From the IMG/VR virus record IMGVR_UViG_3300027770_000046: DNA of 29,506 bases. One strand, written 5' to 3'. Origin of the DNA: a virus. Its lineage: Duplodnaviria > Heunggongvirae > Uroviricota > Caudoviricetes. The position numbers and the translations under genes were made by a program. Position 1 is the first letter of the stretch. Every line of letters starts with the position of its first letter. The notes under the pieces were generated by a model. It was not told the DNA's origin. It saw only the letters and a list, made by a program, of their open reading frames with translations, and did no database searches. Below are positions 1-16,019 of the stretch, in pieces.

Positions 1-6
1 AGATCA

Positions 7-3000
7 ATGCAGTTTTTAAATAAACTAAACAGTCTTCCTAACAAAGCTGAGTTCCAAGTAGTATATATTACTAAGAATAATGAGGCTAAGTTAATCCCTG
101 GATTAGTTGAACATTTAGCACAAGGTAAAACTTCTGTTAAACAAGAAACAACAATTGCTGCTGTAGTAGTTAAGAGAGCAAGCAATGGTGATATTAAGTT
201 AGTAGATGTTAATGGAGAAGAAGTTGCAACAGATCCATTGAACAGTGCCATCTATCAAGTGATGCCTCTTGAAGATTTAAAATGGAGTGAGGAGTTTGGT
301 TCAGAAAGTATGATTAGAGAAAATCAAAAATCTCAACTACCAGCACTTAAGAAAATATATGCTAAGAGAAGAGCAGCTATGCTTAACGCTGAAGACTTAA
401 CCTTATACAACTTTGAGCCTTCTATGGGAACTCTAGTTAAAGGTGATATAGGTGCGTCTGTAGTTGCTGCTGCATTAATTAAGAAATCAGATCTATCTAA
501 TAAGAACGTATTATTCATTCCTACAACAGGAGATGTATTAGACAAAGGTAGTACATATTTTACTAATCCTTTGGGTATGGTATTTTTAAACCATCCAGAT
601 GGATATGTTAGATTACAGAATAAACAAAACTCAGAAGAAGATGCTAAGACTATCTATGATGTATTAGTAAGACTTTCTACAAATGTGTTTAAAAAAGGTA
701 ATGCAAAAGAAAATGCAAATAGTCCTGATTCTCAATTCTTATTGAACTGGTTACGTAGCGTAACTCATTGGGGAAGTCCTAAAGAAGGAGCCACTCCTGG
801 TAAGAACAGTCTTTGGTTTGAAAAAGATAACACTAGAACTTCTGATAAGTTTAGACTTAAAGGTTTTAATTTAGATGTATCATTTAAACCTACTTCTCTT
901 AAGACAAACAGAACTCAGATTATTGATGCTTTAAAGAGCATGTATAATAACATAGATAACAGTAAGTTAAACTATAATGAGTCTTATACAGAGATATTAG
1001 GTATAACTCCAGCTGGTGATATTAAAACCAAAGATTGGGAAAACTACCAAACATACTTATTATCTAGTGAAGGTAGAACTGCTGAACAACTTCCATTGGT
1101 AACAATGGCAGCTCCTGTTGCTCCTGGTGAGTACAATAGAACTGGTGTCTATATGATTATGTCAGGATTTACTGATGCTAATGAAATGGATGCAGTTAAC
1201 CTTGCTAAGAAAACAGCTAAAGGACCTAAAGGAAAAACATCAACATTTGGGTTCAAAGTAGAATCTACAGGAGAAACTGAAAACTTACAATACGTATTAG
1301 ATGACGCTGGCAATGTAGAAATTGTTGATTCAACAGTGAATGATGAAATCGTTGACAGGTTAATGGATGACGATCTTACAGCTAAGAAGTTTGAGAGAAG
1401 ATATGAGGAAACAGTTGATAAAGATTCATCTAAAATCTCTTTAGCAGAACTTATCAAAGTTGTTGCTAAAGGAGTGATTGAAGAAAGAATAGCAGCTAGA
1501 CAAGTTGTAGAAACAGAAGAAATTGGTAAGAGTGGTAAAACTGCAGATGATATTGCTGCAGGATTAGATGCATTTATTCTAGGTAAGGAAGCTACAAAGC
1601 CCACTCCTAAGAAGACAGCTCCAGCTCCTATAGTTTCTGATAAGAAAGCTGATATAGAAAGAAGAAGACAAGAAGAGTTAGATAAATATAAATCAGGGGA
1701 TATTACAGTAGCTGGAGTTAAAGCTATCAATGCTAAATATAATGCAGAACTAGCTGCTTTAGAAGAACAACCTATGGCTCCTGTTGCTGCACCAGCTCCA
1801 ACTGTTGCTACTGATCTAAAGAAGTTCAGAAAGAACATTATGCAGAAGGGTGGTAAGACTAATTTGAGAATTAAATTAGATCAAGCTGTGGCTGACTTTA
1901 ATAGTGAGAACTGGAAAGAGATTGAAGACTTCATGAAAGAAAACTTTAAAACTCTTTCAGCATTTAGATTAAAGAACATATTACAAGCTATTGGTGGAAG
2001 ACAAGCTTGGGGAGCGTATCAAGATGGTAGTGTTTATATATATGAAAACGCTGAGGTTGGTACAGCTTACCATGAAATCTTCCATGCTGTGTGGGATATC
2101 TTCTTAACTACAGAAGAAAAGGCTAACATTGTATTAGAGTTTAGAAGTAGGAAAGGTGACTACGTAGATAGAATTGGAAAGACTATACAATATAAAACTG
2201 CTACAGTTGATGAAATCAATGAGAAGTTAGCTGAAGAATATAGAGAACATAGATTGTCTGGAGAGTTCCCAGCTAAACCTACAGAAGGCATGTCTTGGAT
2301 TCGTAAGTTCTTTACAGAGTTATCAAACTTTATCAATACGTTATTTACAGGAGAGAAAGCTCAGACTAACACAGCTAACTTGTTCAAGAGAATGGGAAGT
2401 GGATACTATGCAAATTCATACAATCCATACCAAGCTCAGTTACAATTAGCACAACCAGGAATAGTAGATCTTGACCAAGCTGCTCTGTCTGGAAGAGCTA
2501 TGTTTAGTCTTGTAAGTGCAGGATTGACTGTAAGTAATATCAATGATATTATGCAGCAAATGACTTACACTACATTGATACAAGCTAGAGCCAATACAAA
2601 TGAAGGCTTGTTTAGTGTTGAAGACTTAGATAGAAAAGAATTATATGATACATTAAAAGATGATATCGAACAAGTTGTATATGGAAGTGCATTAAACTGG
2701 GCTACAAAAACAATTGAAGAAGACCCAAGCAAACAAGCTGATGTCGCACCAATTCTTGCTAATTACAAAGCATTACGTGATACTATATTTGCCAACTGGA
2801 ATGATATTGTTAAGAAGCATGAAGAAGAGTATCTAAGCTCTTACTCTGTTAAATTAACAGATGAAGAAGCTAACTTTAGAAATGAATATAACATTACAGG
2901 TAAGGGAGATGAATATAATGACTCTAACCAAGTAGATGCATTTAGAAAATCAAGTGCTGCTATTAAGTTATTACTAGCTACAGTTCCTGTATTAGATCAA

Positions 3001-6000
3001 AATGGATACAATGCTGTATCTTCTATTGGTGGTGTAGTATTAGAACCAATGGGTAAGGTGTACACAACATTACTTAATACTCTACATAACTCTGTAGATA
3101 TTAATGACATGATGGAAAAGCTACGTATCTTAAGCTTAGAACAACCACAATATTCTGTGGTATATTCTAGACTTACAAATGGACTTCCTAATGCTATTAA
3201 GGATGACTACTTCAAAAACATAGATGACCTTTCTGGTTTACAATTATCTAGTGCTTTCTACAAAGCGTTTGATTTACAGAACCCTGAAGTTAAAACAACC
3301 TTTGTTCTTCAGAATGGGGATGTAAGTATTAGTGATACTACATTAGCAAATGCTACAGATCAGATTGCATCTGAGATGGAATCTTCTATTATCAAAGCTA
3401 TTAAGATTGATAAGAAGTTTTTAGCATTTAATGGTCGCTCCTTTGTGCACAAGAAAACCAAGTCAGGAATCAATGAGATTGATAAAGAAACAGTTGGAAC
3501 AATAGATAATAACATTAAGTTTTTAAAGAAATTAGGAGTTGATGTTAATAAAGAGAAGTTAGAAAAACAATCAGATTGGAATAAGCGTAAGTTTATTGAT
3601 GGTGTAAATGGTATCAAAAGAAGTATTTCAGACATCACTGCTATTAGAGAGATTACAAGTAAATCTCTTAATATCAATACAAGACTAAGAGAAGTGGGTG
3701 AGGTGATTGCTGCTATTCAAAACCCTGATTTCCAAACAACTTTTATTAATCTTAATGGAGACCTTGTACAATCATTCATTGGACAAAATCCATTGAGTAT
3801 GTTCCATAATGTATTAGTAAAGTCAAATAAGTTATCAGACTTAGAGAACACTAGATACAACTATTTACTTCCTGGGAATGACGTATTTAGTCAAGGCTCT
3901 GTTATCATGTCTAAGGTATATGATACAGAAGGTAATAAGAAGTCTAATGTTGATAAATACATGACTGTTGGATATACAGGTGGTATTTTTAATGAACTGA
4001 CTAATAAGAAGAAAGGATCTTCTAAAGTTGTGTATGCTGAGCGTTTGATAGAAGAGTTAAACTTAAACTTAAAAGGTGTTTACATGAACTTAGTTCCTGG
4101 AGATGCATCTTTAGGTTGGTTACTATCTATGGGCAATCACATTTCTGCAACAAGTATAGCTATAAACAATAATCCTATACATGCTATATTTAAAGAATAC
4201 ATTAAAGCTGAGATTAATCTTTCTAGAGAAGGTCGTACCATTCCTAAAATTGAGGGAAGAAAGAACACAGACTTACGTTTCTTCAAAGGTATATTAGGAG
4301 AAACATTACATAATCTTGTTGTAGCTGCTTCTGAAGAGAAAGAAGGCAAAGAGTTTAAATACACTACAGATGAAGTGTATAATCAATTTGAAGAAAGAAT
4401 CAACAAAGCTTCTGATAAGTTTTTAAGCGATGATGTCACTGATAGAATCAAAACTTACACTGCTAATGGATTGATTAAGAAGGACTTATTTGGAGATACA
4501 TATACAGTCAAAGGTATTCAGTTACCTATGAAAAAGAATATATCTCTTGAGGTGTTAAGGAATCAATTAAGTGCTATGAGTGCTAACTACATGATAAATA
4601 ACATTGAGTTGCACAAGCTGATTTATTCTGATCCTTATTTATACAAAGATGAATTAAAGCGTATTAAGAGTTTTAGTTCTCCACGTCAATCTACTATTAA
4701 CAGTTCTGTAGAGTGGAACGCTAAGGCAAATGAAATTGCAAATCAAGAGTACAAGAGCAAAAAGGATATTGGATATACAGATATGATCAAGGATCATTTA
4801 AACAGCATTGTTCTTGAAGACAACGTTAGTGTAAATGAGGCATTGAAATATCAACAATTCAAGTCTACAGATGGTGGAGGTGTAATTACTTTAAAGGCTT
4901 CTCGCAAGTTAGCAATGCGTGATGGTAACTGGAACCCTTCAAAAGAAAGACAATATCAGTATGATGTTGCTTATGAAAAAGATGTGAAGGGATTAAGAAT
5001 GTCTAAGTTTGAGAGAGCTGTATTAAAGAATGGTAACCCTGGAATCACTGCAGCATACACTCCAATCAAGCCAATTGTTACAGGTCGTAAACTAAATGAG
5101 AAGAAGTACAATGATGTAATGTTAGATAAGTTTGCCCTTTATCCATTGAGCTTCAGGATATTACATCAGATGAATCCTGAATCTAATGCTATCAAGTTAT
5201 ACAACAAGATGCAAGCTGGAGACATTGATTATGCTGTATATGACTCAGGTAGAAAAGTTGGAAGTACAAATAAAGTTAGTTTATATAATGAGGAAAATGA
5301 GTTTGATACAACTCCTGTTACTAAAAAGAACATAACAAAAGTACCTTTCTCAATCATAGGTATCCAAGCTGAAGTTCCTTCCAAAGAAACTGGTGACGTA
5401 ACTAGAGGTAGTCAGGTGACTAAGTTAGTTACATTAGACTTCTTAGACTGTGGTGTACCTTTAGACTTCATGACAGGCAAAGATTTTGGTCAAAGATTAG
5501 CTGCTTGGAATGCATTAGAGTCAGAAGATGCTAAGTTAGATGCTTCAGGAATATACACAGAACTTAAGAACTATGATAACTTATTAAATGAGTTAACTAA
5601 TATTGGATATGAAGAGTTATTAGAAAGTATAGGTTGGGATGGTAAGAGTGGTAACTTAGATCTAAAAAGATTAGGAGACTTTTTATACTCACAGGTTATT
5701 AAAGGTAACACTGATGAGAATATTCTTAAGAGTATTGAAAGTTTAAAGCTTGGTAATAAAGACGTTGAAGCTACTCCAGCATACAGCCAAATTAGAAATA
5801 CATTATATTCTATAGCTAGAGATATGTTTATTTCTCCTACTATGTCAGGAGGATTAAAGGTTCAGATTCCATCAGCAACATTAGAAGCAGGTGGTATTAA
5901 GAAAGCAATGGTAAATGGTAAGGAAGGATTAGTGTCTGATGTATTGAACTTTTATACAAACGCTAATGGTGAGGTGGTAGCTGAGATAATGGCAGCAAGA

Positions 6001-9000
6001 TGGTTTGAGTCAGATAAGACAGATGAAGAATTATTAGAATACTTTAATACTGAAGAAGGACAAAAGATTTTAAAAGGAATATCATTTCGTATCCCAACTC
6101 AAAAACAAAACTCAATTGATGTTATTAAAATAGCTAAATTCTTGCCTAAAGAGTTTGGAGACAGTGTTGTCATCCCAGCAGGAATGGTAGCTAAGGTAGG
6201 ATCTGACTTTGATATTGACAAGTTATCAATCTATTTAAAGAACGTAATAGTTGATAAAAAGACTGGTGATATTAAGCTAGTGCCTTTTAAAGGAATAGGC
6301 AAAGCTGCTAGAGATACCTTCAATAACTTAGAAGACTATAAGAAGTCTATTCAAAATGCTTATATTGAATCAATGGAAAACTTAGTAGGACATCCTGCTA
6401 ACTTTGACAGATTGGTTAAACCTAACTCTGCACAGCCATTAAAAGATTTAGCAGATAGAATTCTTAAACTAAAAGGAAAGACTAAAACAAACTATAGTTC
6501 TGTAGTTAATATGTTAAAACAAACAACTATGTCTGGTATCAGACATGCGTTTGTTTCTGGTAAATATGCTATTGGTATTGCTGCTACATCTCAAACAAAC
6601 CACTCACTTAATCAACGTGGTATGGTTGTGTTTGATACAAATACTGATACTAAACCTGGAGATAAAGTTTGGTTAAAGAACAAAAAGCTTTCATTTGAAA
6701 AGTTTAATAGTATAAAACCATATGGTCAAGCGTCATATGCAACTTTATCTAGAGTGTTTGATGCAAACAATGAGTATGAGATTTCTGATATTATTGGTAT
6801 GTTCATTGATGGATATGTGGACATCTCTAATGGTGCTTGGGTTATGGACTTGGGTGCTACCCCTGAGGTGGCAGGTACATGGTTAACGTTAGTTAAGTTT
6901 GGTGTGCCTATTGAAACAGTGGCATACTTCATGAACCAACCAATCATCCTAGATTATCTAGCGTCTTTACAAGCTAAAGGTTCTACTTATTTGTTCTCTT
7001 ACACAGATGTAAACAACATCAAAGAGAGTAAGAAGTATGGTGTAGATAAAAGAAGCAGTCTTGTAAAAGAGGCTGTATTAACTAATAAAGGTCTTGAGAA
7101 AACTGTAAACAGCATACCAGCTGATGATAAAGCTAGAGGTCAACAGCAATTCATTTTAGATGAGTTTTTGAAATACGCTAAGATGGCTGAGATGCTTTTA
7201 AGAGTGACTCAGTCTACTAACTTTGATACAACAAATATCAATGACCCATCATTAATCTACATGATGAATGAGAAGATTAAACAAAATGGTCCAGACAAAG
7301 GAAATACAAATAGTTTAAATTCTGGTACAAAAAACATTTTAGATAATTCTTACATTGGTAATTTATACAAGAAGTTATTAGAAATCACAAACATATATGG
7401 TAAAGTTTTAATTTCTGAAAAACAGGACAATAAAACTGCGTTAGAAAATAACATCTTAAGTAGATACTTAGGTTTACCAAAAGATAAGTTTGTTGAAGTT
7501 GCTAGGAAAGCATTGAATAGTGTATTTGATTACTCTACTCAAGTGAACAGTGACTTAAATAAATCTCTTGGTACATTATTGATTGGTGAGGATAGTGTGG
7601 CTAAACAAATGGGTGACTTTATTAATGAGATAAAAGAAGAAGGAGAAGACCATCCATTAGCTAACAACTTGATTATCAAATCATTACGTTATACTCCTTC
7701 AGTTAAAGAAGGAGGTGCAGATGAGTTAAAGTTTGTAGCTAAGGATAATAAGTCATATGATAAGAATCAAATCATCTACTCTTTCTCTGAATTAAAAGAT
7801 TATTTAAAGAACACTGATCAAGAAGATTTGTACAAAGGATTGATTGCATTCTCAATTGTACAATCAGGATTAATCAACTCTCCAATATCATTTACTCAGT
7901 TCATTCCTTATGAAGACTTTATTGAATACTACCAAGAGAATATTAACTCTCTTAATAGTACAACCATAAATACATTTGGAAAGGTAGGAGCTTTTGAAAG
8001 AAACAACTGGACTAATCCAGATCTTGTGGCATTCAAAAAGGCATACTATGAGGTTGATGAAGATGACCAAGCTAGATACAACGCTTCAAGAACATTGGCA
8101 ACAGGCTATGAATCTGTCCAAGCAGCTATTAATAATAAAGATATTCCTCAGCTTATTACAATCCCTAGATCTGACGTAGCATCTAGAAAAGACTATGTAG
8201 TGTTTACATGGGAAGAAGGCACTGAAGATGAGAAAAAACAGATGAAAGCTGATGGTGACTTGTCTTATATTAGAAAAGGATTGTTTAGAAAAGTGATTCA
8301 GCCCAGTACACAAACTCCACTTATGTCTAAAGGAAGAGGATATGTTTACAAGCAAATCAACGCATGGGGAGATGGTATGAGAGCTAATGAGTTCTATGAC
8401 CATGCAAGAAAGTCTGTTTTCAATAATGGCTTTGATCCTGTAGAGAACGAGGTGGATGATATGTTAATTGTAAATTTATATGGGCTTGCTCAACAATCAC
8501 TTAGAGAAGATATTAGTCTTGAGGAGGTAGAAGCAAACTGGGACAATTTCAATACATTAGATGAGAACGAACCAGAAGATTCTCCAATTGAAAACATTGA
8601 GGAAACATCTGAAGAAACTTCTGAAAGTGAGGAAGATATTGTATCTTTACAGGGAGTTAGTACTAAGGAAATGACGTATCAAACTGTCTATAAGATTGTA
8701 GATATAACTGATACTCCTGTGGACGCTTATGGAATAGCTCTTCAATATATTGCTAATGGTGGAAAGGTTAATGAAGAATCTTTATATAAGGAAGTTATTA
8801 CTAGAAGAGATAAAAGACTTACTCCTAAAAAACAAACAAAAGAAGAATCTAGAAATAGAGACTATGTTACTAAAGATGCAGAATCAATTGAAGATATTGC
8901 TCAATCAATTTGGGATGATTTAACTGAAGATGTCCAAAGTAGGGTGGAAGATAACTCAATTAGGAATGCATTAAATGATGTAGTGGGTTCATTTAATACA

Positions 9001-9414
9001 AGACTTGAAGCTGCTAGAGAGTTTGTAAGTAAATATTCAACTCAAGATGATGTTGATAGAGCTATGAAAGCTTCTATTAAAACTCCTATTGAGATTGCAA
9101 TAAGTGCTGCTAAAAAAGCAGAAGTAAAGAAGATTGTTATTAATGGTCAGGCTTATACAGAAAAAGGAAATAAGTTATATAAGAATGATGTAGAAGTTGC
9201 TAATAAAAGAGTTAATGAAATATATGCTGTTAGAAAAGAGATTCAAAATCAAACAATTAGAGTTACTACATATGGTAATAAAAATTATTTTGTTCTTTCA
9301 GATGATAGTATTGTAGCTAGTGATAAAGCAACACTAGGACAAAAAGTAAATGTTTCAGAAGATGTTAAAGAAATGATTTTAAGTAAAGCTGTTAAATATA
9401 AGAAAAATTGTTAA
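7..9414 (+). CDS. crAss-like virion-associated RNA polymerase polyprotein (N-terminal extension + zincin-like protease domain + two-barrel RNAP); probably 5'-truncated by the window
   Basis: 3135-aa ORF; frame is open to base 1 (AGA TCA ATG). HEIFH at 2071-2085 with downstream EKLAEE (2221-2238). beta-like motifs STDGGG (4864-4881), PIKP, DKFALYP, RGSQ. beta'-like RIPTQ (6088-6102) and GSDFDIDK (6199-6222). DFDID is the catalytic variant known from crAss-like virion RNAPs such as phi14:2 gp66. Confidence 0.92.
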   Translation: MQFLNKLNSLPNKAEFQVVYITKNNEAKLIPGLVEHLAQGKTSVKQETTIAAVVVKRASNGDIKLVDVNGEEVATDPLNSAIYQVMPLEDLKWSEEFGSESMIRENQKSQLPALKKIYAKRRAAMLNAEDLTLYNFEPSMGTLVKGDIGASVVAAALIKKSDLSNKNVLFIPTTGDVLDKGSTYFTNPLGMVFLNHPDGYVRLQNKQNSEEDAKTIYDVLVRLSTNVFKKGNAKENANSPDSQFLLNWLRSVTHWGSPKEGATPGKNSLWFEKDNTRTSDKFRLKGFNLDVSFKPTSLKTNRTQIIDALKSMYNNIDNSKLNYNESYTEILGITPAGDIKTKDWENYQTYLLSSEGRTAEQLPLVTMAAPVAPGEYNRTGVYMIMSGFTDANEMDAVNLAKKTAKGPKGKTSTFGFKVESTGETENLQYVLDDAGNVEIVDSTVNDEIVDRLMDDDLTAKKFERRYEETVDKDSSKISLAELIKVVAKGVIEERIAARQVVETEEIGKSGKTADDIAAGLDAFILGKEATKPTPKKTAPAPIVSDKKADIERRRQEELDKYKSGDITVAGVKAINAKYNAELAALEEQPMAPVAAPAPTVATDLKKFRKNIMQKGGKTNLRIKLDQAVADFNSENWKEIEDFMKENFKTLSAFRLKNILQAIGGRQAWGAYQDGSVYIYENAEVGTAYHEIFHAVWDIFLTTEEKANIVLEFRSRKGDYVDRIGKTIQYKTATVDEINEKLAEEYREHRLSGEFPAKPTEGMSWIRKFFTELSNFINTLFTGEKAQTNTANLFKRMGSGYYANSYNPYQAQLQLAQPGIVDLDQAALSGRAMFSLVSAGLTVSNINDIMQQMTYTTLIQARANTNEGLFSVEDLDRKELYDTLKDDIEQVVYGSALNWATKTIEEDPSKQADVAPILANYKALRDTIFANWNDIVKKHEEEYLSSYSVKLTDEEANFRNEYNITGKGDEYNDSNQVDAFRKSSAAIKLLLATVPVLDQNGYNAVSSIGGVVLEPMGKVYTTLLNTLHNSVDINDMMEKLRILSLEQPQYSVVYSRLTNGLPNAIKDDYFKNIDDLSGLQLSSAFYKAFDLQNPEVKTTFVLQNGDVSISDTTLANATDQIASEMESSIIKAIKIDKKFLAFNGRSFVHKKTKSGINEIDKETVGTIDNNIKFLKKLGVDVNKEKLEKQSDWNKRKFIDGVNGIKRSISDITAIREITSKSLNINTRLREVGEVIAAIQNPDFQTTFINLNGDLVQSFIGQNPLSMFHNVLVKSNKLSDLENTRYNYLLPGNDVFSQGSVIMSKVYDTEGNKKSNVDKYMTVGYTGGIFNELTNKKKGSSKVVYAERLIEELNLNLKGVYMNLVPGDASLGWLLSMGNHISATSIAINNNPIHAIFKEYIKAEINLSREGRTIPKIEGRKNTDLRFFKGILGETLHNLVVAASEEKEGKEFKYTTDEVYNQFEERINKASDKFLSDDVTDRIKTYTANGLIKKDLFGDTYTVKGIQLPMKKNISLEVLRNQLSAMSANYMINNIELHKLIYSDPYLYKDELKRIKSFSSPRQSTINSSVEWNAKANEIANQEYKSKKDIGYTDMIKDHLNSIVLEDNVSVNEALKYQQFKSTDGGGVITLKASRKLAMRDGNWNPSKERQYQYDVAYEKDVKGLRMSKFERAVLKNGNPGITAAYTPIKPIVTGRKLNEKKYNDVMLDKFALYPLSFRILHQMNPESNAIKLYNKMQAGDIDYAVYDSGRKVGSTNKVSLYNEENEFDTTPVTKKNITKVPFSIIGIQAEVPSKETGDVTRGSQVTKLVTLDFLDCGVPLDFMTGKDFGQRLAAWNALESEDAKLDASGIYTELKNYDNLLNELTNIGYEELLESIGWDGKSGNLDLKRLGDFLYSQVIKGNTDENILKSIESLKLGNKDVEATPAYSQIRNTLYSIARDMFISPTMSGGLKVQIPSATLEAGGIKKAMVNGKEGLVSDVLNFYTNANGEVVAEIMAARWFESDKTDEELLEYFNTEEGQKILKGISFRIPTQKQNSIDVIKIAKFLPKEFGDSVVIPAGMVAKVGSDFDIDKLSIYLKNVIVDKKTGDIKLVPFKGIGKAARDTFNNLEDYKKSIQNAYIESMENLVGHPANFDRLVKPNSAQPLKDLADRILKLKGKTKTNYSSVVNMLKQTTMSGIRHAFVSGKYAIGIAATSQTNHSLNQRGMVVFDTNTDTKPGDKVWLKNKKLSFEKFNSIKPYGQASYATLSRVFDANNEYEISDIIGMFIDGYVDISNGAWVMDLGATPEVAGTWLTLVKFGVPIETVAYFMNQPIILDYLASLQAKGSTYLFSYTDVNNIKESKKYGVDKRSSLVKEAVLTNKGLEKTVNSIPADDKARGQQQFILDEFLKYAKMAEMLLRVTQSTNFDTTNINDPSLIYMMNEKIKQNGPDKGNTNSLNSGTKNILDNSYIGNLYKKLLEITNIYGKVLISEKQDNKTALENNILSRYLGLPKDKFVEVARKALNSVFDYSTQVNSDLNKSLGTLLIGEDSVAKQMGDFINEIKEEGEDHPLANNLIIKSLRYTPSVKEGGADELKFVAKDNKSYDKNQIIYSFSELKDYLKNTDQEDLYKGLIAFSIVQSGLINSPISFTQFIPYEDFIEYYQENINSLNSTTINTFGKVGAFERNNWTNPDLVAFKKAYYEVDEDDQARYNASRTLATGYESVQAAINNKDIPQLITIPRSDVASRKDYVVFTWEEGTEDEKKQMKADGDLSYIRKGLFRKVIQPSTQTPLMSKGRGYVYKQINAWGDGMRANEFYDHARKSVFNNGFDPVENEVDDMLIVNLYGLAQQSLREDISLEEVEANWDNFNTLDENEPEDSPIENIEETSEETSESEEDIVSLQGVSTKEMTYQTVYKIVDITDTPVDAYGIALQYIANGGKVNEESLYKEVITRRDKRLTPKKQTKEESRNRDYVTKDAESIEDIAQSIWDDLTEDVQSRVEDNSIRNALNDVVGSFNTRLEAAREFVSKYSTQDDVDRAMKASIKTPIEIAISAAKKAEVKKIVINGQAYTEKGNKLYKNDVEVANKRVNEIYAVRKEIQNQTIRVTTYGNKNYFVLSDDSIVASDKATLGQKVNVSEDVKEMILSKAVKYKKNC
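2071..2238 (+). other. Zincin-type metal-binding motif (HExxH plus downstream Glu) within the polyprotein
   Basis: GTAYHEIFHAVW followed about 50 aa later by NEKLAEEY. Confidence 0.8.
6088..6222 (+). other. RNAP catalytic double-psi barrel motifs RIP ... DFDID
   Basis: SFRIPTQKQNS at 6082-6114 and GSDFDIDKL; DFDID codons at 6205-6219. Confidence 0.92.
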
Positions 9415-9415
9415 T

Positions 9416-9844
9416 ATGCCTTGTAAAATAGAAATTAGAAAAGCAATTGATAAGAGTATTGCTATTAAAACTGACAATGATTATCAGGGATTCTCTGAGA
9501 AATCAGCAAGGGCTGTAGCTGTATCTTTAAATAAACTATGGGGGAGTATTGCTAGTATTGCCCAAACTAGTGGACGAGGTGATTATAAAGTAACTATTTC
9601 TAGAATGGATGAAGCAGTTGATAGAGAATATGATAGACAATTGTCTGCAGAAAAACAATTTGAAAGAGATTTATCTTTCTTTAATGATGATCAAGCTTTG
9701 TACGAACAAGAACAAAAAGAAACTATTGATTTAACAGAGACACTTGTAAAAGAATATGGTGTTGAAAATATAAATAGTAACATGTTGGAAGGGTTAGGAT
9801 ACGCTCCTGAACAAATTGGTAAAATCTTAAAAGAAATCTGTTAA
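9416..9844 (+). CDS. Hypothetical protein in the ejection-protein cluster (Cys at residue 3 and at the C-terminus)
   Basis: 142-aa ORF one base from each neighbour (TAA-T-ATG on both sides); no family recognised. Confidence 0.8.
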   Translation: MPCKIEIRKAIDKSIAIKTDNDYQGFSEKSARAVAVSLNKLWGSIASIAQTSGRGDYKVTISRMDEAVDREYDRQLSAEKQFERDLSFFNDDQALYEQEQKETIDLTETLVKEYGVENINSNMLEGLGYAPEQIGKILKEIC

Positions 9845-9845
9845 T

Positions 9846-12800
9846 ATGGCAACTTGTCCAAATAAAAATTTAAGTTCTTGGAAAACATTGGTGACTGCTC
9901 AAGGAGAAGAAATGGCTTTCTACTTATGGGATAAGTATGAAGGTAACGTTCCTTCTGAATATTATGAACCAGTAACTCAAAGTACAAAGACATACAATCA
10001 AATAACTGACGCACAACAAATTATTCTTGATAAGCTTGCTCAGACAAAGAAGGAACTAAGTAAGATTGATAGAGAAGATACTAATGATAGAGGAGAAAAG
10101 ATAATTAAACAAGTCTATACAAGAACTACTGCTGAAGGAACTAAAGATGTTAAGACAAGAGTTACAGACGTAGTAAGAGAAAAAGCTAAACAGTCTGGAT
10201 TTGATGAAGAAAACTTAAGCTTAGAAGAGAAGACATTTAATGCTTTCAAGAGAGATGAGGGTATTAAAAGACACAGTGTAATGGAGGATATTCATAAAAG
10301 ATACTTCAATGAAGATGGTACTAAAAGAAATAATCCTTTAGAAGAACCAGCTTTTGATTCAGAGGTAGATCAAGAGATATATGAAAAGTTAAATACCTAC
10401 TTTACAGACTTGGTTATATCTTTACCAGAAGGAACCATATTCCTTGCTGAGCAAATGATTTATAATCCTAGTACAGATATGGCAGGTACTGTTGACTTAC
10501 TTGCTATTGAACCAAGTGGTAAAGTTAATGTCTATGACTGGAAGTTTGGTACTGTTGCTAAAGATGCTAAAGATATTGCTTGGTATAAACAAGAGGCATA
10601 CAATATTCAATTAGGTTTATATAAGTCTACATTAAAAGATGCTTATGGAGCTAAAGAGTTTCATAACCTAAAAGCTATTCCTATTCAGTTTAGAGTTAAT
10701 GTTATTAACAAGAGAAATGGTACAACAGACTATAAACTTAATGGTATAAATATTGGTTCAGTAGATCCAAGTCAACTTAAGAGTTTATTACTTACACCTG
10801 TTTCTGAAGAAACAGAATCTACAGGTGATGATAAGTTAGATAAAATAGTGAAAAACTTAAATACATTAGTAAAGCGTATTGCTGATAAAAATGTTACAGA
10901 AGACAAGAAAGATCTTAAGACAGAAAAGCTTGATAGTATTAGAAGAGCAGCTAGAATGATACAAGGTCAAGACAATCTATCTGGATTGATTGACACTATT
11001 AGTGTATTACAACGTGAGGGTGAGAAACTTGTAAATGACTATGAAGTTATTTATAAAAACAGACCTGCTACAAGTGAAGATTCTACAGATAAAGACTTAT
11101 CTGCATTTGCTATAGATATGGCTACATATTTAAACACTGCAGACATGTTTGATAGAATGGATATCAAGATAGGTGATTATATCTATACAAAAGAAATGGA
11201 GGAAGAAGCTGAGACAGAAGAAGAGATGGAAGCTGTTAATGAATTAAAAGAAACATTAGATGACTTACGTAAGGCCACTTCTTCTATCTATGCATCCAAA
11301 GAAAAGATTAAAGAAATATTTAAAGAGTTTGGTTCAAAGCACATTGGTGAAAGAAATGCTGTAGTAGGATTAACAGACTCAGAGCGTTTCTTTAAAGGAT
11401 TTGCTGTAAACTTTGAAGGATTTGCTGATATTGGTATGAGAGCATTGGACGTATTGTATCAATTAAATACAAAGGCTAGAGCGTCAGCTCAACGTACTGC
11501 TCTAGAAAAAGTTAAGAAGTTAATGGATATTAGAAAGAAAATAATTGCCAGAGGAGATGCTGAATCTGTAGTTAGTAAAATATTCAAGAAGACAAAAACT
11601 GGAGATAAGGTAAACAAGCTTATTGATAAATATGATCCTGAGTTTAGAAAAAAACTAAAAGATGCTGCAGTAAAAGATGATGTTGACTGGTTGTTTGAAA
11701 ACATTGATGTTGATAGAGTGAGAAAAGAAGGTAAAGAAATTTTGGACAAGAAGATTAAAAATCTTGAAGAATTCTATAAAGAGGATAATGATAAATTAAA
11801 TTATGCTATTGATAAGGCAACACGTGTTTGGGATATTGATAATCCAGACTTTAATGGTTGGAAGACCAACTATTTATTATACAAATATCCAAAAGATAAA
11901 TGGTTTTCTGAAGAGTATAAGGAAGTAACAAAAGATCCTGAGTTGTTTGAACTTTACAATTATATAATTGATATTAATGAAGTTGCTACAGACTCTGGAT
12001 TTATTGAGAAAAAGGTGATGAATAGTTTCTTACCATTTATTAGGAAAAGTGTTGCTGAAAAACTACAAGAAAATAATTTCTTAGCTCCTATACAAGACTT
12101 TTATGATAGTCTTAAAATGAATCCAGATGATGTAGGAATTGGTAAGTTTGATGAGATTACAGGAAAATTAATAAATGGTCTTCCTAAATACTACACATAT
12201 GACTTTAGTAAAACTGAAGGAGGGGCTAATGACTACTCTGAGGTGAGCTTTGATATATTTAGGAACTTAATTCTTTATACACAAGAGGTTGAAAAGTATA
12301 AATACTTAGAAGAGGTTGAAGGTCAGGTGGAGGCAATAAATATTATTGAAGAGTTTAAAGAAAATCACATTGCTACTAATAGATCTGGAGGTGTTATCTT
12401 TGATGAGAACAACAATCCAGTAGAAGCTGCAGGTAACCAAGAAAACATAAAACTATTATCTGACTTTACTAGAGCTGTATTTTACGAGCAAAAGTATGTG
12501 TTGTCTGATACAGATACTCCATTAGCATTAGGTAAAGCCATCAATGGGGTTAAGAAAATGCTTAATGTATTGTCTAACAAAACAATAGGTAGAGACATTG
12601 TTAGTATAAATGAAGATGTCAAAGCTACATCTTTGATGAAGTTAATGGATGCTGCTAATAGAGGATTCCAACTTAAGGTGTTAGCTCTTGATCCTGCTCC
12701 AGCTCTTATTAACTTTTTGGGTTCTCAATTCCAAATATCTGCTCAGGCTGGTACATACTTTACCCAAACAGATGTAATTAAAGGTATGAGAGACTTAACT

Positions 12801-14138
12801 AATCATACCTTTAGAAATAAAGAAGATAGAGAAGCATTTGCTCAATTGGTTAACTTATTTCAGCCATTAAGAGAAGGTCCTATTTATGAGGAGCTTAAAA
12901 AGTCTAGTCTTACTAAAATGGGTAATGTTCTTAATGGAGATAATATATCTGATTTCTTAATGATGGGCTTTAGACAACCAGAAATGTTTGTTGAAAAAAC
13001 TATATTTAAAGCATTGTTAGATAACACAATGGTAGAGAATGGAAAGCTAATAAACATTAATGACTATGTAAAAGCTAAGTATAAAGGAAGATATGATACT
13101 GCTGACAACTTTCAAGAGGCTAGTGGAAAAATAGAGGAAGAAGTTAATGAGCTAAAGAGAACACGTTCTATCTCAGCAACTAAAAAAATAGTTAATGGCA
13201 AATTAGAGATTCCTGGATTTGATACAAGTAACCTTTCTGAAGTTGAAAGACTCACTAAACTTAATAAGGATATTACAAATAGAGTGGTGGGTAGTATGTC
13301 CAAAGAGAACATGAATAAAATGAGTATGAACATTTGGACTAGAGGATTGATGGTGTTTAAAAACTGGATCTATCCTTTATATAGTACACGTTTTAATGGT
13401 ATTAAGAAGCTTGGAACAGATTCATTCTCTTTTAAAATAGAAGACGATGGTACAATTGAAGGGGAGAAATATGATATTGGTAGGGCTAACTTGTTCTTTA
13501 AGATGGTTTATGAAACTATTAAAGACAGGCAAAACAATATTAATAATCTGTTAAAAGTTAATGTAGAAGGTGTTAAAAAGATAAATGAACTATATGATAG
13601 ATACCAAGAAACTTATTATAAGAAGACAGGACAACGTATGAACATGAGCAAAGAAGACTTTGCTGACATGCTTAGAACTAATCTTAGAAATGAGTTAAAA
13701 GAAATCAATTATATTATTACATTAACAGCAGCAATGTTTGCTTTAGGAATTCTTGCTCCTGGAGATGATGCAGATAGAGCTACTAAGAATAGATTTAGAT
13801 ATTATGAGAAGTTGTTAGATAAAATTAGAGATGAACTTACCTTCTTCTATAACCCTAATGAGATTAGAAGTTTATTAAGTGGTGGTATCTTTCCTGCAAT
13901 TGGTGTAGTTACAGATGCTTTGAACTTAGTAAATCATATGTCTGAACAAATTACAGGTATGTCTATATCTAAAGAAGGAAAAACCCCAGAACAAATTAGA
14001 GAAGAAGCAATGCCTCTTAAAGACCTGTTACGTATTGTTCCTGGTGGAAAGAACATATTAACATTTGGTGCTATTCTTAGCGAAGATTGGGCTAAAGAAT
14101 TTGACATAACCATTCAAAAGAAGAATACAATCAGGTAG
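9846..14138 (+). CDS. Large putative ejection (internal virion) protein with N-terminal PD-(D/E)xK nuclease-like domain and C-terminal hydrophobic segment
   Basis: 1430 aa. E...AGTVDLL...VYDWK...QLGLY (10449-10622) fits the RecB-like PD-(D/E)xK pattern. YIITLTAAMFALGILAP at 13710-13760. Position after the virion RNAP matches crAss-like gene order as I recall it. Confidence 0.75.
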   Translation: MATCPNKNLSSWKTLVTAQGEEMAFYLWDKYEGNVPSEYYEPVTQSTKTYNQITDAQQIILDKLAQTKKELSKIDREDTNDRGEKIIKQVYTRTTAEGTKDVKTRVTDVVREKAKQSGFDEENLSLEEKTFNAFKRDEGIKRHSVMEDIHKRYFNEDGTKRNNPLEEPAFDSEVDQEIYEKLNTYFTDLVISLPEGTIFLAEQMIYNPSTDMAGTVDLLAIEPSGKVNVYDWKFGTVAKDAKDIAWYKQEAYNIQLGLYKSTLKDAYGAKEFHNLKAIPIQFRVNVINKRNGTTDYKLNGINIGSVDPSQLKSLLLTPVSEETESTGDDKLDKIVKNLNTLVKRIADKNVTEDKKDLKTEKLDSIRRAARMIQGQDNLSGLIDTISVLQREGEKLVNDYEVIYKNRPATSEDSTDKDLSAFAIDMATYLNTADMFDRMDIKIGDYIYTKEMEEEAETEEEMEAVNELKETLDDLRKATSSIYASKEKIKEIFKEFGSKHIGERNAVVGLTDSERFFKGFAVNFEGFADIGMRALDVLYQLNTKARASAQRTALEKVKKLMDIRKKIIARGDAESVVSKIFKKTKTGDKVNKLIDKYDPEFRKKLKDAAVKDDVDWLFENIDVDRVRKEGKEILDKKIKNLEEFYKEDNDKLNYAIDKATRVWDIDNPDFNGWKTNYLLYKYPKDKWFSEEYKEVTKDPELFELYNYIIDINEVATDSGFIEKKVMNSFLPFIRKSVAEKLQENNFLAPIQDFYDSLKMNPDDVGIGKFDEITGKLINGLPKYYTYDFSKTEGGANDYSEVSFDIFRNLILYTQEVEKYKYLEEVEGQVEAINIIEEFKENHIATNRSGGVIFDENNNPVEAAGNQENIKLLSDFTRAVFYEQKYVLSDTDTPLALGKAINGVKKMLNVLSNKTIGRDIVSINEDVKATSLMKLMDAANRGFQLKVLALDPAPALINFLGSQFQISAQAGTYFTQTDVIKGMRDLTNHTFRNKEDREAFAQLVNLFQPLREGPIYEELKKSSLTKMGNVLNGDNISDFLMMGFRQPEMFVEKTIFKALLDNTMVENGKLININDYVKAKYKGRYDTADNFQEASGKIEEEVNELKRTRSISATKKIVNGKLEIPGFDTSNLSEVERLTKLNKDITNRVVGSMSKENMNKMSMNIWTRGLMVFKNWIYPLYSTRFNGIKKLGTDSFSFKIEDDGTIEGEKYDIGRANLFFKMVYETIKDRQNNINNLLKVNVEGVKKINELYDRYQETYYKKTGQRMNMSKEDFADMLRTNLRNELKEINYIITLTAAMFALGILAPGDDADRATKNRFRYYEKLLDKIRDELTFFYNPNEIRSLLSGGIFPAIGVVTDALNLVNHMSEQITGMSISKEGKTPEQIREEAMPLKDLLRIVPGGKNILTFGAILSEDWAKEFDITIQKKNTIR

Positions 14139-14294: not shown

Positions 14295-16019
14295 ATGAAC
14301 GTTACTTGCTCTGCAACCCCATGTCCAGTTATATTGGATGCGACCTGCGTATTCTACGAAGGCCCCTTCCTTGTATACACTGGTATTAATACCAACGACA
14401 ATTTACAAACAGCATTAGAGAAGATTGATGCAGCTTTTGCATCAGCTGGCTATGGTACATCTGGTACATCTGGTACTAGTGGCTCCTCTGGAAGAAATGG
14501 AACTAATGGAGTTTCAGGAACTAATGGAATCAATGGTACTAAAGGTACATCAGGTACTTCAGGATCTTCTGGTACATCTGGAAGAACTGGAACTGCTGGT
14601 ACTTCTGGAAGGAATGGTACAGCTGGTACGTCAGGTAGTTCTGGGTCTAGTGGTAGAAATGGTACAGCTGGTACATCAGGTACATCAGGAACTGCTGGTT
14701 CTAATGGTACTAGTGGTAGTAGTGGATCTAGTGGTAGTAATGGTACCTCAGGTTCTTCTGGAACATCTGCTTCCTCTGGCTCTTCTGGTACATCTGGTAG
14801 TGCTGGTACAGATGGTAGTGCAGGAACTTCTGGTTCATCTGCCTCTAGTGGTACGTCAGGTTCTACAGGAACTTCTGGCAGTGCTGGTACATCAGGCTCA
14901 AGTGGTTCTGGTGGTGTTTCAGGTTCAGCTGGTACATCTGGATCTTCAGGTTTTACAGGTGATAGATATGCAACGTTCTCAGTACAAACATTTACATTAG
15001 GTAATGCTGGTACTTTACAAGTGACTCTTGGTTTAGCTTACACTGTTGGTCAAGCAATTATTATTGCTTATGATATTAACAACTATCAAGAGTGTAATGT
15101 AATTTCTTATAACAGTGCTACAGGTGCACTTAATTTTGATGCTCCTACAATAACAATAGGTGGTGGAACATATAGTTCATGGCAAATTAACTTGAATGGT
15201 GCCACAGGTGGTGCAGGTTCAAGTGGTACATCTGGTTCAAGTGGAACTAGTGGTACTACAGGTACTTCTGGAACTACAGGTACTTCAGGTACAACTGGTA
15301 CAGATGGCTCATCTGGTACAACAGGAACTGATGGTTCTTCTGGAACGTCAGGCTCTTCAGGTACAAGTGGCAGTTCTGGAACTGATGGATCTAGTGGAAC
15401 ATCAGGCTCTTCTGGAACATCTGGTTCTTCTGGAACTAGTGGTACAGATGGATCAAATGGTACGAGTGGTACAACAGGAACAAGTGGCACAGATGGATCT
15501 TCTGGTACATCAGGCTCTAGTGGCACTAGTGGAACAGATGGTTCAAGTGGAACAACAGGCACATCAGGTACTGATGGAAGCTCTGGAACAACTGGAACAA
15601 GTGGAACTGATGGTTCTTCAGGTACAGCAGGTACAAGTGGTATAGATGGTACAAGTGGTACAGATGGCTCTAGTGGTACTTCAGGAACTACAGGTACAGA
15701 TGGTTCTAGTGGTACAGCAGCAACATCAGGTATTTCTACATTGATGGCTGGTACAAGTGGTAGTACAATTACTATTCCTCCTGCTGAAGCTACAACAACA
15801 ACAACAACAACGACTGCACCTACTTATTATTATTATTTAGGAAGTCCTTGTGTAGGTGGAGCTAATGTAACTATTAGATCTACTACAACTCTAACTAATG
15901 GTGATGTAATATATCATAGTAATGGAAATTGTTGTACTATTTTCACTACTACTCTAGGACCTACTTATGATGCAGATTTTATATCACTTGAAACATGTTT
16001 TGTAGCTCCTTGCCCTTAA
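14295..16019 (+). CDS. Fibre protein A: Cys-containing N-terminal (putative virion anchor) domain, two Ser/Thr Gly-X-Y blocks around an intact beta-domain, then orphan first strand, Thr8 linker and small Cys-rich domain
   Basis: 574 aa. N-terminus TCSATPCPVILDATCVFYEGP...LQTALEKID. Gly-X-Y at 14454-14960 and 15198-15731. beta-domain at 14967-15200. Confidence 0.85.
   Translation: MNVTCSATPCPVILDATCVFYEGPFLVYTGINTNDNLQTALEKIDAAFASAGYGTSGTSGTSGSSGRNGTNGVSGTNGINGTKGTSGTSGSSGTSGRTGTAGTSGRNGTAGTSGSSGSSGRNGTAGTSGTSGTAGSNGTSGSSGSSGSNGTSGSSGTSASSGSSGTSGSAGTDGSAGTSGSSASSGTSGSTGTSGSAGTSGSSGSGGVSGSAGTSGSSGFTGDRYATFSVQTFTLGNAGTLQVTLGLAYTVGQAIIIAYDINNYQECNVISYNSATGALNFDAPTITIGGGTYSSWQINLNGATGGAGSSGTSGSSGTSGTTGTSGTTGTSGTTGTDGSSGTTGTDGSSGTSGSSGTSGSSGTDGSSGTSGSSGTSGSSGTSGTDGSNGTSGTTGTSGTDGSSGTSGSSGTSGTDGSSGTTGTSGTDGSSGTTGTSGTDGSSGTAGTSGIDGTSGTDGSSGTSGTTGTDGSSGTAATSGISTLMAGTSGSTITIPPAEATTTTTTTTAPTYYYYLGSPCVGGANVTIRSTTTLTNGDVIYHSNGNCCTIFTTTLGPTYDADFISLETCFVAPCP
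14454..14960 (+). repeat. Gly-X-Y block (GTS/GSS/GTA/GRN), Pro-free
   Basis: Triplet register in the translation; two Ala-for-Gly triplets (ASS). Confidence 0.95.
15198..15731 (+). repeat. Gly-X-Y block (GTS/GSS/GTT/GTD), Pro-free
   Basis: Triplet register in the translation; recurring GTD-GSS units. Confidence 0.95.

Follow-up and report, generated by a model that had tools for sequence, protein, structure and literature searches.

In the IMG/VR record IMGVR_UViG_3300027770_000046, a phage DNA stretch of 29,506 nucleotides (nt) that was analysed over its whole length and is called the window here, three abutting open reading frames (ORFs) on the + strand form a block of cargo proteins with very few cysteines (Cys), nearly all of which lie where one protein ends and the next begins. 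The first ORF (1..9414; this and all features below on the + strand) encodes a giant protein with the tail ...KYKKNC, assigned from its tblastn and BLASTP matches as a fusion of two cargo proteins, A and B. Read from the ATG at position 7 (7-9414), it has 2 Cys in 3135 amino acids (aa), a sole interior one at residue 1815 (5449..5451) and one as the final residue (9409..9411), the latter being kept in relatives. The second ORF (9416..9844) encodes a 142-aa link protein running from MPCKIE... to ...ILKEIC, whose 2 Cys are residue 3 (9422-9424) and the final residue 142 (9839-9841), and the third (9846..14138) encodes a 1430-aa protein that starts MATCPN... and has its only Cys at residue 4 (9855-9857). 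The remaining window proteins contain ~0.7% Cys. A recount of the translations bore out the Cys numbers and positions given for the three ORFs in the preliminary description of this DNA; its length of 3135 aa for the giant protein did not stand, since the ORF is cut by the 5' end of the window. The ORF is open to base 1 and its residue 2 aligns at about residue 977 of a full-length relative, so the ATG at position 7 is internal and 3135 aa a lower bound; full-length relatives comprise 3655-5251 aa. The C-terminal Cys of the giant protein is kept in loci L001, L002, L045, L078 and L081, with tails of the form ...YKK[NTE]C. An interior Cys is also common among its relatives, with one at about residue 2850-3400 of the full length (in unaligned residue numbers), and is missing from gp66 of phage phi14:2.

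Searched with tblastn, the giant protein matched 129 phage records at ~22% identity, including the catalytic RNA polymerase (RNAP) subunit g066 of phi14:2 (E 2e-14), gp50 of crAss001 and cr108_1, and BLASTP returned the two-barrel virion RNAPs phi14:2 gp66 at E 1e-18 and crAss001 gp50 at E 2e-9. Residues 664-746 match the C-terminal region of crAss001 gp47, the N-terminal A part lying outside the window, and the giant ORF is taken as an A-B fusion because its upstream part matches a protein of the gp47/gp67 type. The last 499 aa of the giant protein had no relative in IMG/VR. The 142-aa and 1430-aa proteins gave no match in tblastn against GenBank phages, so the link to known phages was made via the RNAP. 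A BLASTP chain leads from the 1430-aa protein to L004_1636 (41% identity), from there to crAss001 gp49 and a 1714-aa protein of cr108_1, and on to phi14:2 gp65, placing it in the gp65/gp49 family as the third cargo protein ("C/D"); Pfam detected a PD-(D/E)XK nuclease-like region in it, and 704 homologues of the third protein were found among representative proteins. These similarities indicate that the three ORFs are a crAss-type virion RNAP cargo block. Packing of such proteins in the virion has been shown by proteomics only for phi14:2 (10.1101/2020.03.07.982082) and crAss001 (PMC10172136), and the cargo proteins must partly unfold to exit through the tail (PMC10172136).

We collected 80 IMG/VR loci around the RNAP core, which yielded 66 junctions between the RNAP protein and the next protein with both ORFs at most 60 nt apart, and scored each junction for a Cys among the final 10 residues of the upstream protein and another among residues 2-6 of the downstream one. 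Both Cys were present at 65 of the 66 junctions, and none was one-sided; the only junction with neither Cys, that of L077, lies between a fully fused polyprotein and the fibre gene after it. In separate metagenome loci both Cys were found at 15 of 15 junctions, and a set of 34 non-redundant junctions had both terminal Cys throughout, in tails that are hypervariable save for the Cys. Counted over unique proteins, 29 end directly in the C-terminal Cys, 17 have one residue after it and 17 have two; on the N-terminal side, 32 have their Cys as residue 3 and 25 as residue 4. Interior Cys numbered 66 in 301,898 residues of giant proteins and 4 in 100,469 residues of third proteins (0.004-0.022%), as compared with 0.9% Cys in the other ORFs of the same loci. 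Given this rarity, the terminal Cys pattern is far beyond chance. The third protein was also followed beyond these junctions, in the best 150 of its 704 homologues, of which 134 look full-length: a Cys is found at residues 3-8 in 124 of the 134, or in 127 after correction of three evidently extended starts, and 115 have no other Cys. Tallied over orthologues, the pairing of terminal Cys noticed in the window thus came out strongly positive.

The same layout was found in cultured and named phages, with 14 of 15 GenBank crAss-like genomes from Steigviridae, Intestiviridae, Suoliviridae and Fipvunavirus obeying the rule (Crevaviridae were left out of the sample). In phi14:2, Cys is the last residue of gp67 (1797 aa), residues 3 and 2179 of gp66 (2180 aa) and residue 3 of gp65 (1421 aa), with no further Cys in the 5398 aa of the three proteins. 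In crAss001, gp47 has Cys 2339 of 2341 residues, gp50 has Cys 5, 1334 and 2404 of 2412, and gp49 has a single Cys at residue 5; DAC15 shows the Cys layout of crAss001. The homologous sets gp67-gp66-gp65 and gp47-gp50-gp49 thus share an arrangement in which A ends in Cys, B both begins and ends with Cys, and C begins with Cys. The window differs from them in that A and B are fused, with no junction Cys, and the third protein is split in two. Phage Fpv1 has a 4401-aa protein with its sole Cys at residue 4400, and the next protein starts MAC...; the rule is likewise kept in the Suoliviridae cr118_1, cr1_1, cr114_1, cr125_1 and cr60_1 and the Intestiviridae cr11_1 and cr3_1. In CrAssphage sp. C0531BW4, a p-crAssphage-like Carjivirus (L088, 10950-11020), and in crAss002 (L089, 11088-11190), the annotated start of the RNAP gene lies upstream of an internal Met that opens MSCGNIKL... 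and MSCTPSNP..., respectively, and one of the two annotated starts is a non-ATG codon at the opening of the frame. The Met before S-C is probably the true RNAP start in both genomes. As an annotation rule, the Cys pair would thus mark true protein ends and expose wrong starts such as those of the p-crAssphage-like and crAss002 RNAP genes.

The Cys are confined to ends that meet another cargo protein. At the outer ends, a Cys was found in only 1 of 68 giant-protein N-termini and 1 of 64 C-termini of upstream proteins, and both cases belong to L067, where they face each other. Where proteins are fused the Cys are lost: A-B fusions have none at the former A/B junction, and the A-B-C polyproteins of L077 (5485 aa), L083 (5701 aa) and P0097 (5544 aa), which hold the same domains in the same order in one chain joined by peptide bonds, contain zero Cys. 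Three proteins of ~3000 aa (P0078, P0103 and P0116), in which the A part is joined directly to the third protein with no RNAP core, also lack Cys; a locus scan with P0078 returned nothing, and one with P0116 only more distant loci. Conversely, a new break comes with a new Cys pair, as seen in the 142|1430 split of the window, compared with the fused protein of L001, and in the 525|1711 split of L003. In L064 (15533-22280) and L128, an inserted 161-aa gene (MKTGIYKIEN, GIY-YIG-like) splits the third cargo gene, and the new ends of the two halves read ...KKAPCE and MACYEYKG..., the unsplit comparator L062 being 91% identical. These comparisons indicate that the Cys pattern follows polypeptide breaks, not genes.

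These observations also bear on the idea that each terminal Cys acts separately, by forming a homodimer disulfide, by anchoring its protein to the portal, capsid or DNA, or by serving after ejection in redox chemistry or acylation. Such a role would suit the accessibility of terminal positions and the fixing of tail parts by disulfides in crAss001. It would, however, leave unexplained why the first N-terminus and the last C-terminus never carry a Cys and why C-terminal and N-terminal Cys are equal in number in each genome; moreover, fused proteins lose both Cys rather than keep them in the interior, and neither a lipobox nor a signal peptide precedes the N-terminal Cys. We therefore consider separate roles unlikely. 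A bacterial lipoprotein was rejected specifically: the Cys, at residue 3-5, comes right behind the starting Met, and a hydrophobic leader is absent.

The claim that the C-terminal Cys of one protein pairs with the N-terminal Cys of the next is well supported, with no one-sided junction in any data set (for cr273_1, see below) and with a precedent for the bond in phage A4, described below; on the comparative sequence data, terminal Cys pairing across protein junctions as such is very well supported. The further claim that the chain is linked in gene order did not hold: the genes of the first protein in crAss001 (gp47) and DAC15 (DAC15_61) lie on the opposite strand from their partners, and one to three unrelated genes separate the partners in L009, L017, L066 and L073.

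Two apparent splits without Cys were found to have other causes. A group I intron (Rfam RF00028, 80 bits, E 1e-20) separates two parts of the RNAP gene in cr108_1, and a 1-nt frameshift joins the two RNAP pieces of L082. The Cys pair would in this way also tell real gene splits from introns and frameshifts. The cr108_1 intron (L005, 16358-16676; NC_055878) sits exactly at the catalytic GSD|FDID motif, and the record annotates two proteins, the second with a TTG start. In L082 (11386-11473), the RNAP frames overlap by ~18 nt and homology in the second frame extends upstream of its ATG, which would fit either an assembly indel or a programmed frameshift.

At the DNA level, both window junctions carry the identical 10-mer TGTTAATATG (9409-9418 and 9839-9848), as had been pointed out; it occurs 3 times in the window against 0.27 expected. 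Of 62 related junctions, 54 use TGT for the C-terminal Cys and 58 use it for the N-terminal Cys, with TGC also occurring, and 58 have TAA as the stop. The gaps range from -4 to +36 nt and are most often 1 nt (17 of 62). Junctions of relatives read TGTTAAGATATG or TGCTAATG, and the frame relation of neighbouring cargo genes varies among +1, in frame and -1. Since junction DNA, spacing and frame vary among relatives, the shared 10-mer was rejected as a signal for recoding or as a coupling element, and it amounts to no more than the sum of a preferred Cys codon, a preferred stop and the commonest spacing. The variation of DNA, spacing and codon points to selection on the residue and not on a DNA word.

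The DNA word common to both junctions had been one argument for regarding the Cys as a processing mark, left by polyprotein cleavage, intein-like splicing or recoding across the stop. The single-polyprotein arrangement of some crAss-like phages has been noted in the literature, these polyproteins are thought to be cleaved, and a zincin protease domain is present in the third protein of some relatives. Against processing, fused polyproteins have no Cys at the equivalent positions, Pfam detected no intein or Hint family, and gene frame relation and junction DNA vary as described. A split intein was rejected on similar grounds: beyond PD-(D/E)XK, Pfam returned only DUF4164, below threshold, the Cys stand at the extreme C-terminus and at residue 3-4, tails can be as short as a few residues, and fused forms lack either Cys. 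Processing is largely refuted by these comparisons, and we regard it as very improbable.

The 142-aa protein had been proposed to be an adaptor link, and this part of the proposal failed as far as a dedicated adaptor is concerned. Its residues 1-103 recur as the N-terminal part of the third protein in L001 (79% identity), L078, L045 and L081, where that protein is unsplit, and its remainder belongs to a junction cassette. In place of ~200 residues of the L001 protein, the window has residues 104-142 of the link protein and residues 1-34 of the 1430-aa protein. The cassette (9725..9947), delimited by locus comparison, consists of a tail module (...LGYxPxxIGxILKxIC), the stop, a 1-nt spacer, the start and a head module (MATCPNKNLxxWKxLV...YLWDKY). 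The same tail/head pair is found at the junction between RNAP and third protein in 11 other loci (L003, L004, L015, L018, L020, L023, L040, L056, L069, L072 and L080), and the head module alone also occurs in L067 and cr114_1. P0001, a variant 94% identical to the 142-aa protein, retains both Cys. These data indicate that the 142-aa protein represents the N-terminal domain of the third protein, separated from it by a portable tail/head junction cassette. It belongs to no PHROGs family, and its only Pfam hit was DUF4164, below the cut-off. Its AlphaFold2 (AF2) model has a mean predicted local distance difference test (pLDDT) value of 84.9, with a small alpha/beta domain, a long helix (64-114) and two short C-terminal helices; a sequence search of the PDB gave nothing meaningful, and Foldseek with this model against the PDB gave no match at E <= 0.001.

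The contact of the terminal modules was assessed by complex prediction. The tail (A2) and head (A3, residues 1-60) modules, each with our own alignments, so that the calibration counts below are only rough, gave a score of 0.39, and the best of 3 controls gave 0.01. In the calibration, 58 of 80 solved complexes and 2 of 110 mismatched pairs came up to this mark, and the passes at 0.60 or under comprised only 7 of the 80 solved complexes and both passing mismatches. The prediction runs agreed in at least 97% of contacts, with partner pLDDT of at least 64. The prediction that had been suggested for these modules thus points, weakly, to a contact between them. Across loci, each tail type goes with one head type and each head type with one tail type, and the types are dispersed on the RNAP-core tree, on which 33 head-type changes and 37 tail-type changes were counted; for the CPN head and the IGxILKxIC tail, 7 independent pairs changed the same way, 0 the opposite way and 1 showed no difference (p 0.016).

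Since the pairing evidence is silent on the type of bond, the same termini could be joined without a disulfide, through a shared metal ion (perhaps with ligands from a second pair), other thiol chemistry, or a non-covalent docking tuned by the Cys. In at least one cassette type the Cys are flanked by conserved docking modules, and the weakly predicted contact of these modules agrees with this. Each side, however, offers only one Cys, and over the 34 non-redundant junctions no His, Cys or Asp next to it is conserved, so that ligands would be too scarce for a Zn or Fe site of the usual kind; most tails are short and, but for the Cys, hypervariable, and the identical signature in phage A4 is a disulfide. 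We judge a join of this kind improbable, and a disulfide, by analogy with A4, the most likely bond between the paired Cys.

In the pre-ejectosome of cyanophage A4 (Anabaena phage A-4L), cryo-electron microscopy has revealed a disulfide between gp27 Cys1715 and gp26 Cys5 (PNAS 2025, PMC12002296), in which the C-terminal helix of gp27 docks into gp26 and is locked by the bond (PMC12002296). Checking the A-4L genome, we found that the only Cys of the 1717-aa protein (...DNPCQF) and of the 1114-aa protein (MSKHC...) are those bonded. A single Cys near the C-terminus of the upstream protein and at residue 5 of the downstream one, in consecutive large ejection proteins, is the same signature as in the crAss-type cargo, and AF2 predicts the tail module of the window to be helical as well. 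A4 differs in having one link between two proteins in a pentameric ring, reported as a structural detail and not as a rule, whereas the chain proposed for the window has two links with a 142-aa middle piece and rests on comparative evidence. In the virion of crAss001, inter-protein disulfides are present in the tail (PMC10172136).

Suppression of Cys in ejected proteins is itself already known and not new. In Schitoviridae, Cys make up 0.865% of the proteome and 0.00075% of the virion RNAP homologues, which was ascribed to passage through the periplasm (Lokareddy et al. 2024, PMC11445570), and we counted zero Cys in N4 gp50 (3500 aa), in T7 gp15 and in the first 1302 residues of T7 gp16. The ejected proteins of Schitoviridae (N4 gp50, DEV gp71-73) and T7 are thus Cys-suppressed like the crAss cargo, but they have no conserved terminal Cys, whereas crAss-type proteins keep exactly the junction Cys despite the purge.

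Taken together, the following picture would best account for the locus. The cargo proteins are purged of Cys, as is usual for ejected phage proteins, save at the ends that face a junction. Within the virion, the giant A-B protein would be bonded through its C-terminal Cys to Cys3 of the 142-aa protein, and Cys142 of the latter would bond Cys4 of the 1430-aa protein, with cognate tail and head modules docking first and the disulfide then locking them. The product would be a linear chain of uniform N-to-C polarity, a covalent stand-in for the single polyprotein of some relatives; where separation of such a polyprotein occurs at all it would need proteolysis, and the link in the window could be opened by reduction. 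The bond would form in or after assembly and would keep stoichiometry and order while the chain is threaded through the tail, and reduction in the cytoplasm would open it; the ordered threading and the reductive release in the cytoplasm are what we infer from the layout. We also put forward, tentatively and with more doubt than confidence, a general and portable "redox peptide bond" in Crassvirales and their relatives, by which short cognate tail/head cassettes with one Cys each at the end or start would allow an injected polyprotein to be cut anywhere and rejoined covalently in the virion. Its cargo would exit as one thread with set order and polarity and would come apart into active enzymes only on reaching the reducing cytoplasm. 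The cuts could come from gene fission, inserted homing-endonuclease genes, gene inversion or module exchange, and the 142-aa protein would be a link made by such a cassette. The novelty would then lie in extending a bond seen once, in an unrelated phage, to a modular rule across the order.

Several points weigh against a disulfide chain. Virions assemble in a reducing cytoplasm and the gut lacks oxygen, so that the Cys would have to be oxidised inside the capsid or after release. The A4 precedent is an analogy, because its proteins have no sequence homology to crAss proteins: phmmer with A4 gp26, gp27 and gp28 against all collected crAss-type proteins gave none at E <= 0.01. The co-variation of tail and head types was rejected as evidence of co-evolution, the modules lying less than 100 base pairs apart, where physical linkage alone could explain it. 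The position of the Cys is also not uniform, with the C-terminal Cys of crAss001 gp50 lying 8 residues before the end and that of L066 as far as 13 residues from it, and two apparently unfused third proteins (P0120 and P0141) have no Cys at all. A partial exception to the rule is cr273_1 (L096, Oafivirinae), in which the two giant proteins have 14 and 9 Cys, many of them interior, and no Cys lies in the last 10 residues upstream, the nearest being 49 before the end, with the downstream protein still starting MFCPNY. Finally, the maps of crAss001 leave the cargo unresolved (PMC10172136), and neither that paper nor the phi14:2 preprint (10.1101/2020.03.07.982082) mentions terminal Cys or a link between cargo proteins. 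The N4 paper likewise mentions neither, and our full-text literature searches returned no paper describing a terminal-Cys link for Crassvirales. As a separate feature of cr273_1, its cargo genes contain 36 and 12 in-frame stops under table 11 and can be read through only with stop-codon recoding.

How gp47, gp49 and gp50 are ordered, dosed and threaded was named an open question by the crAss001 structure paper (PMC10172136). If the disulfide chain is real, it would provide a conserved tether, readable from sequence, for moving a megadalton cargo through a narrow tail, would explain why polyprotein and split forms interchange freely, and would amount to a natural redox switch that activates the virion RNAP.

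Terminal Cys were also noted outside the cargo block. T7 gp14 (L101, 1229-1819) has a single Cys at residue 2 (MCWAAA...). Downstream in the window, a collagen-like tail-fibre protein (14295-16019, + strand) starts MNVTCS... and has Cys at residues 5, 10 and 18, and this three-Cys N-terminal spacing recurs in the first fibre gene downstream of the cargo block in many related loci within L008-L087 (for example L008, L010, L011, L013, L015, L018, L020, L026 and L028). Because residues 1-26 of the crAss001 fibre dock in a disulfide-stabilised hub, the three-Cys N-terminus may, by analogy, be a hub-docking peptide.

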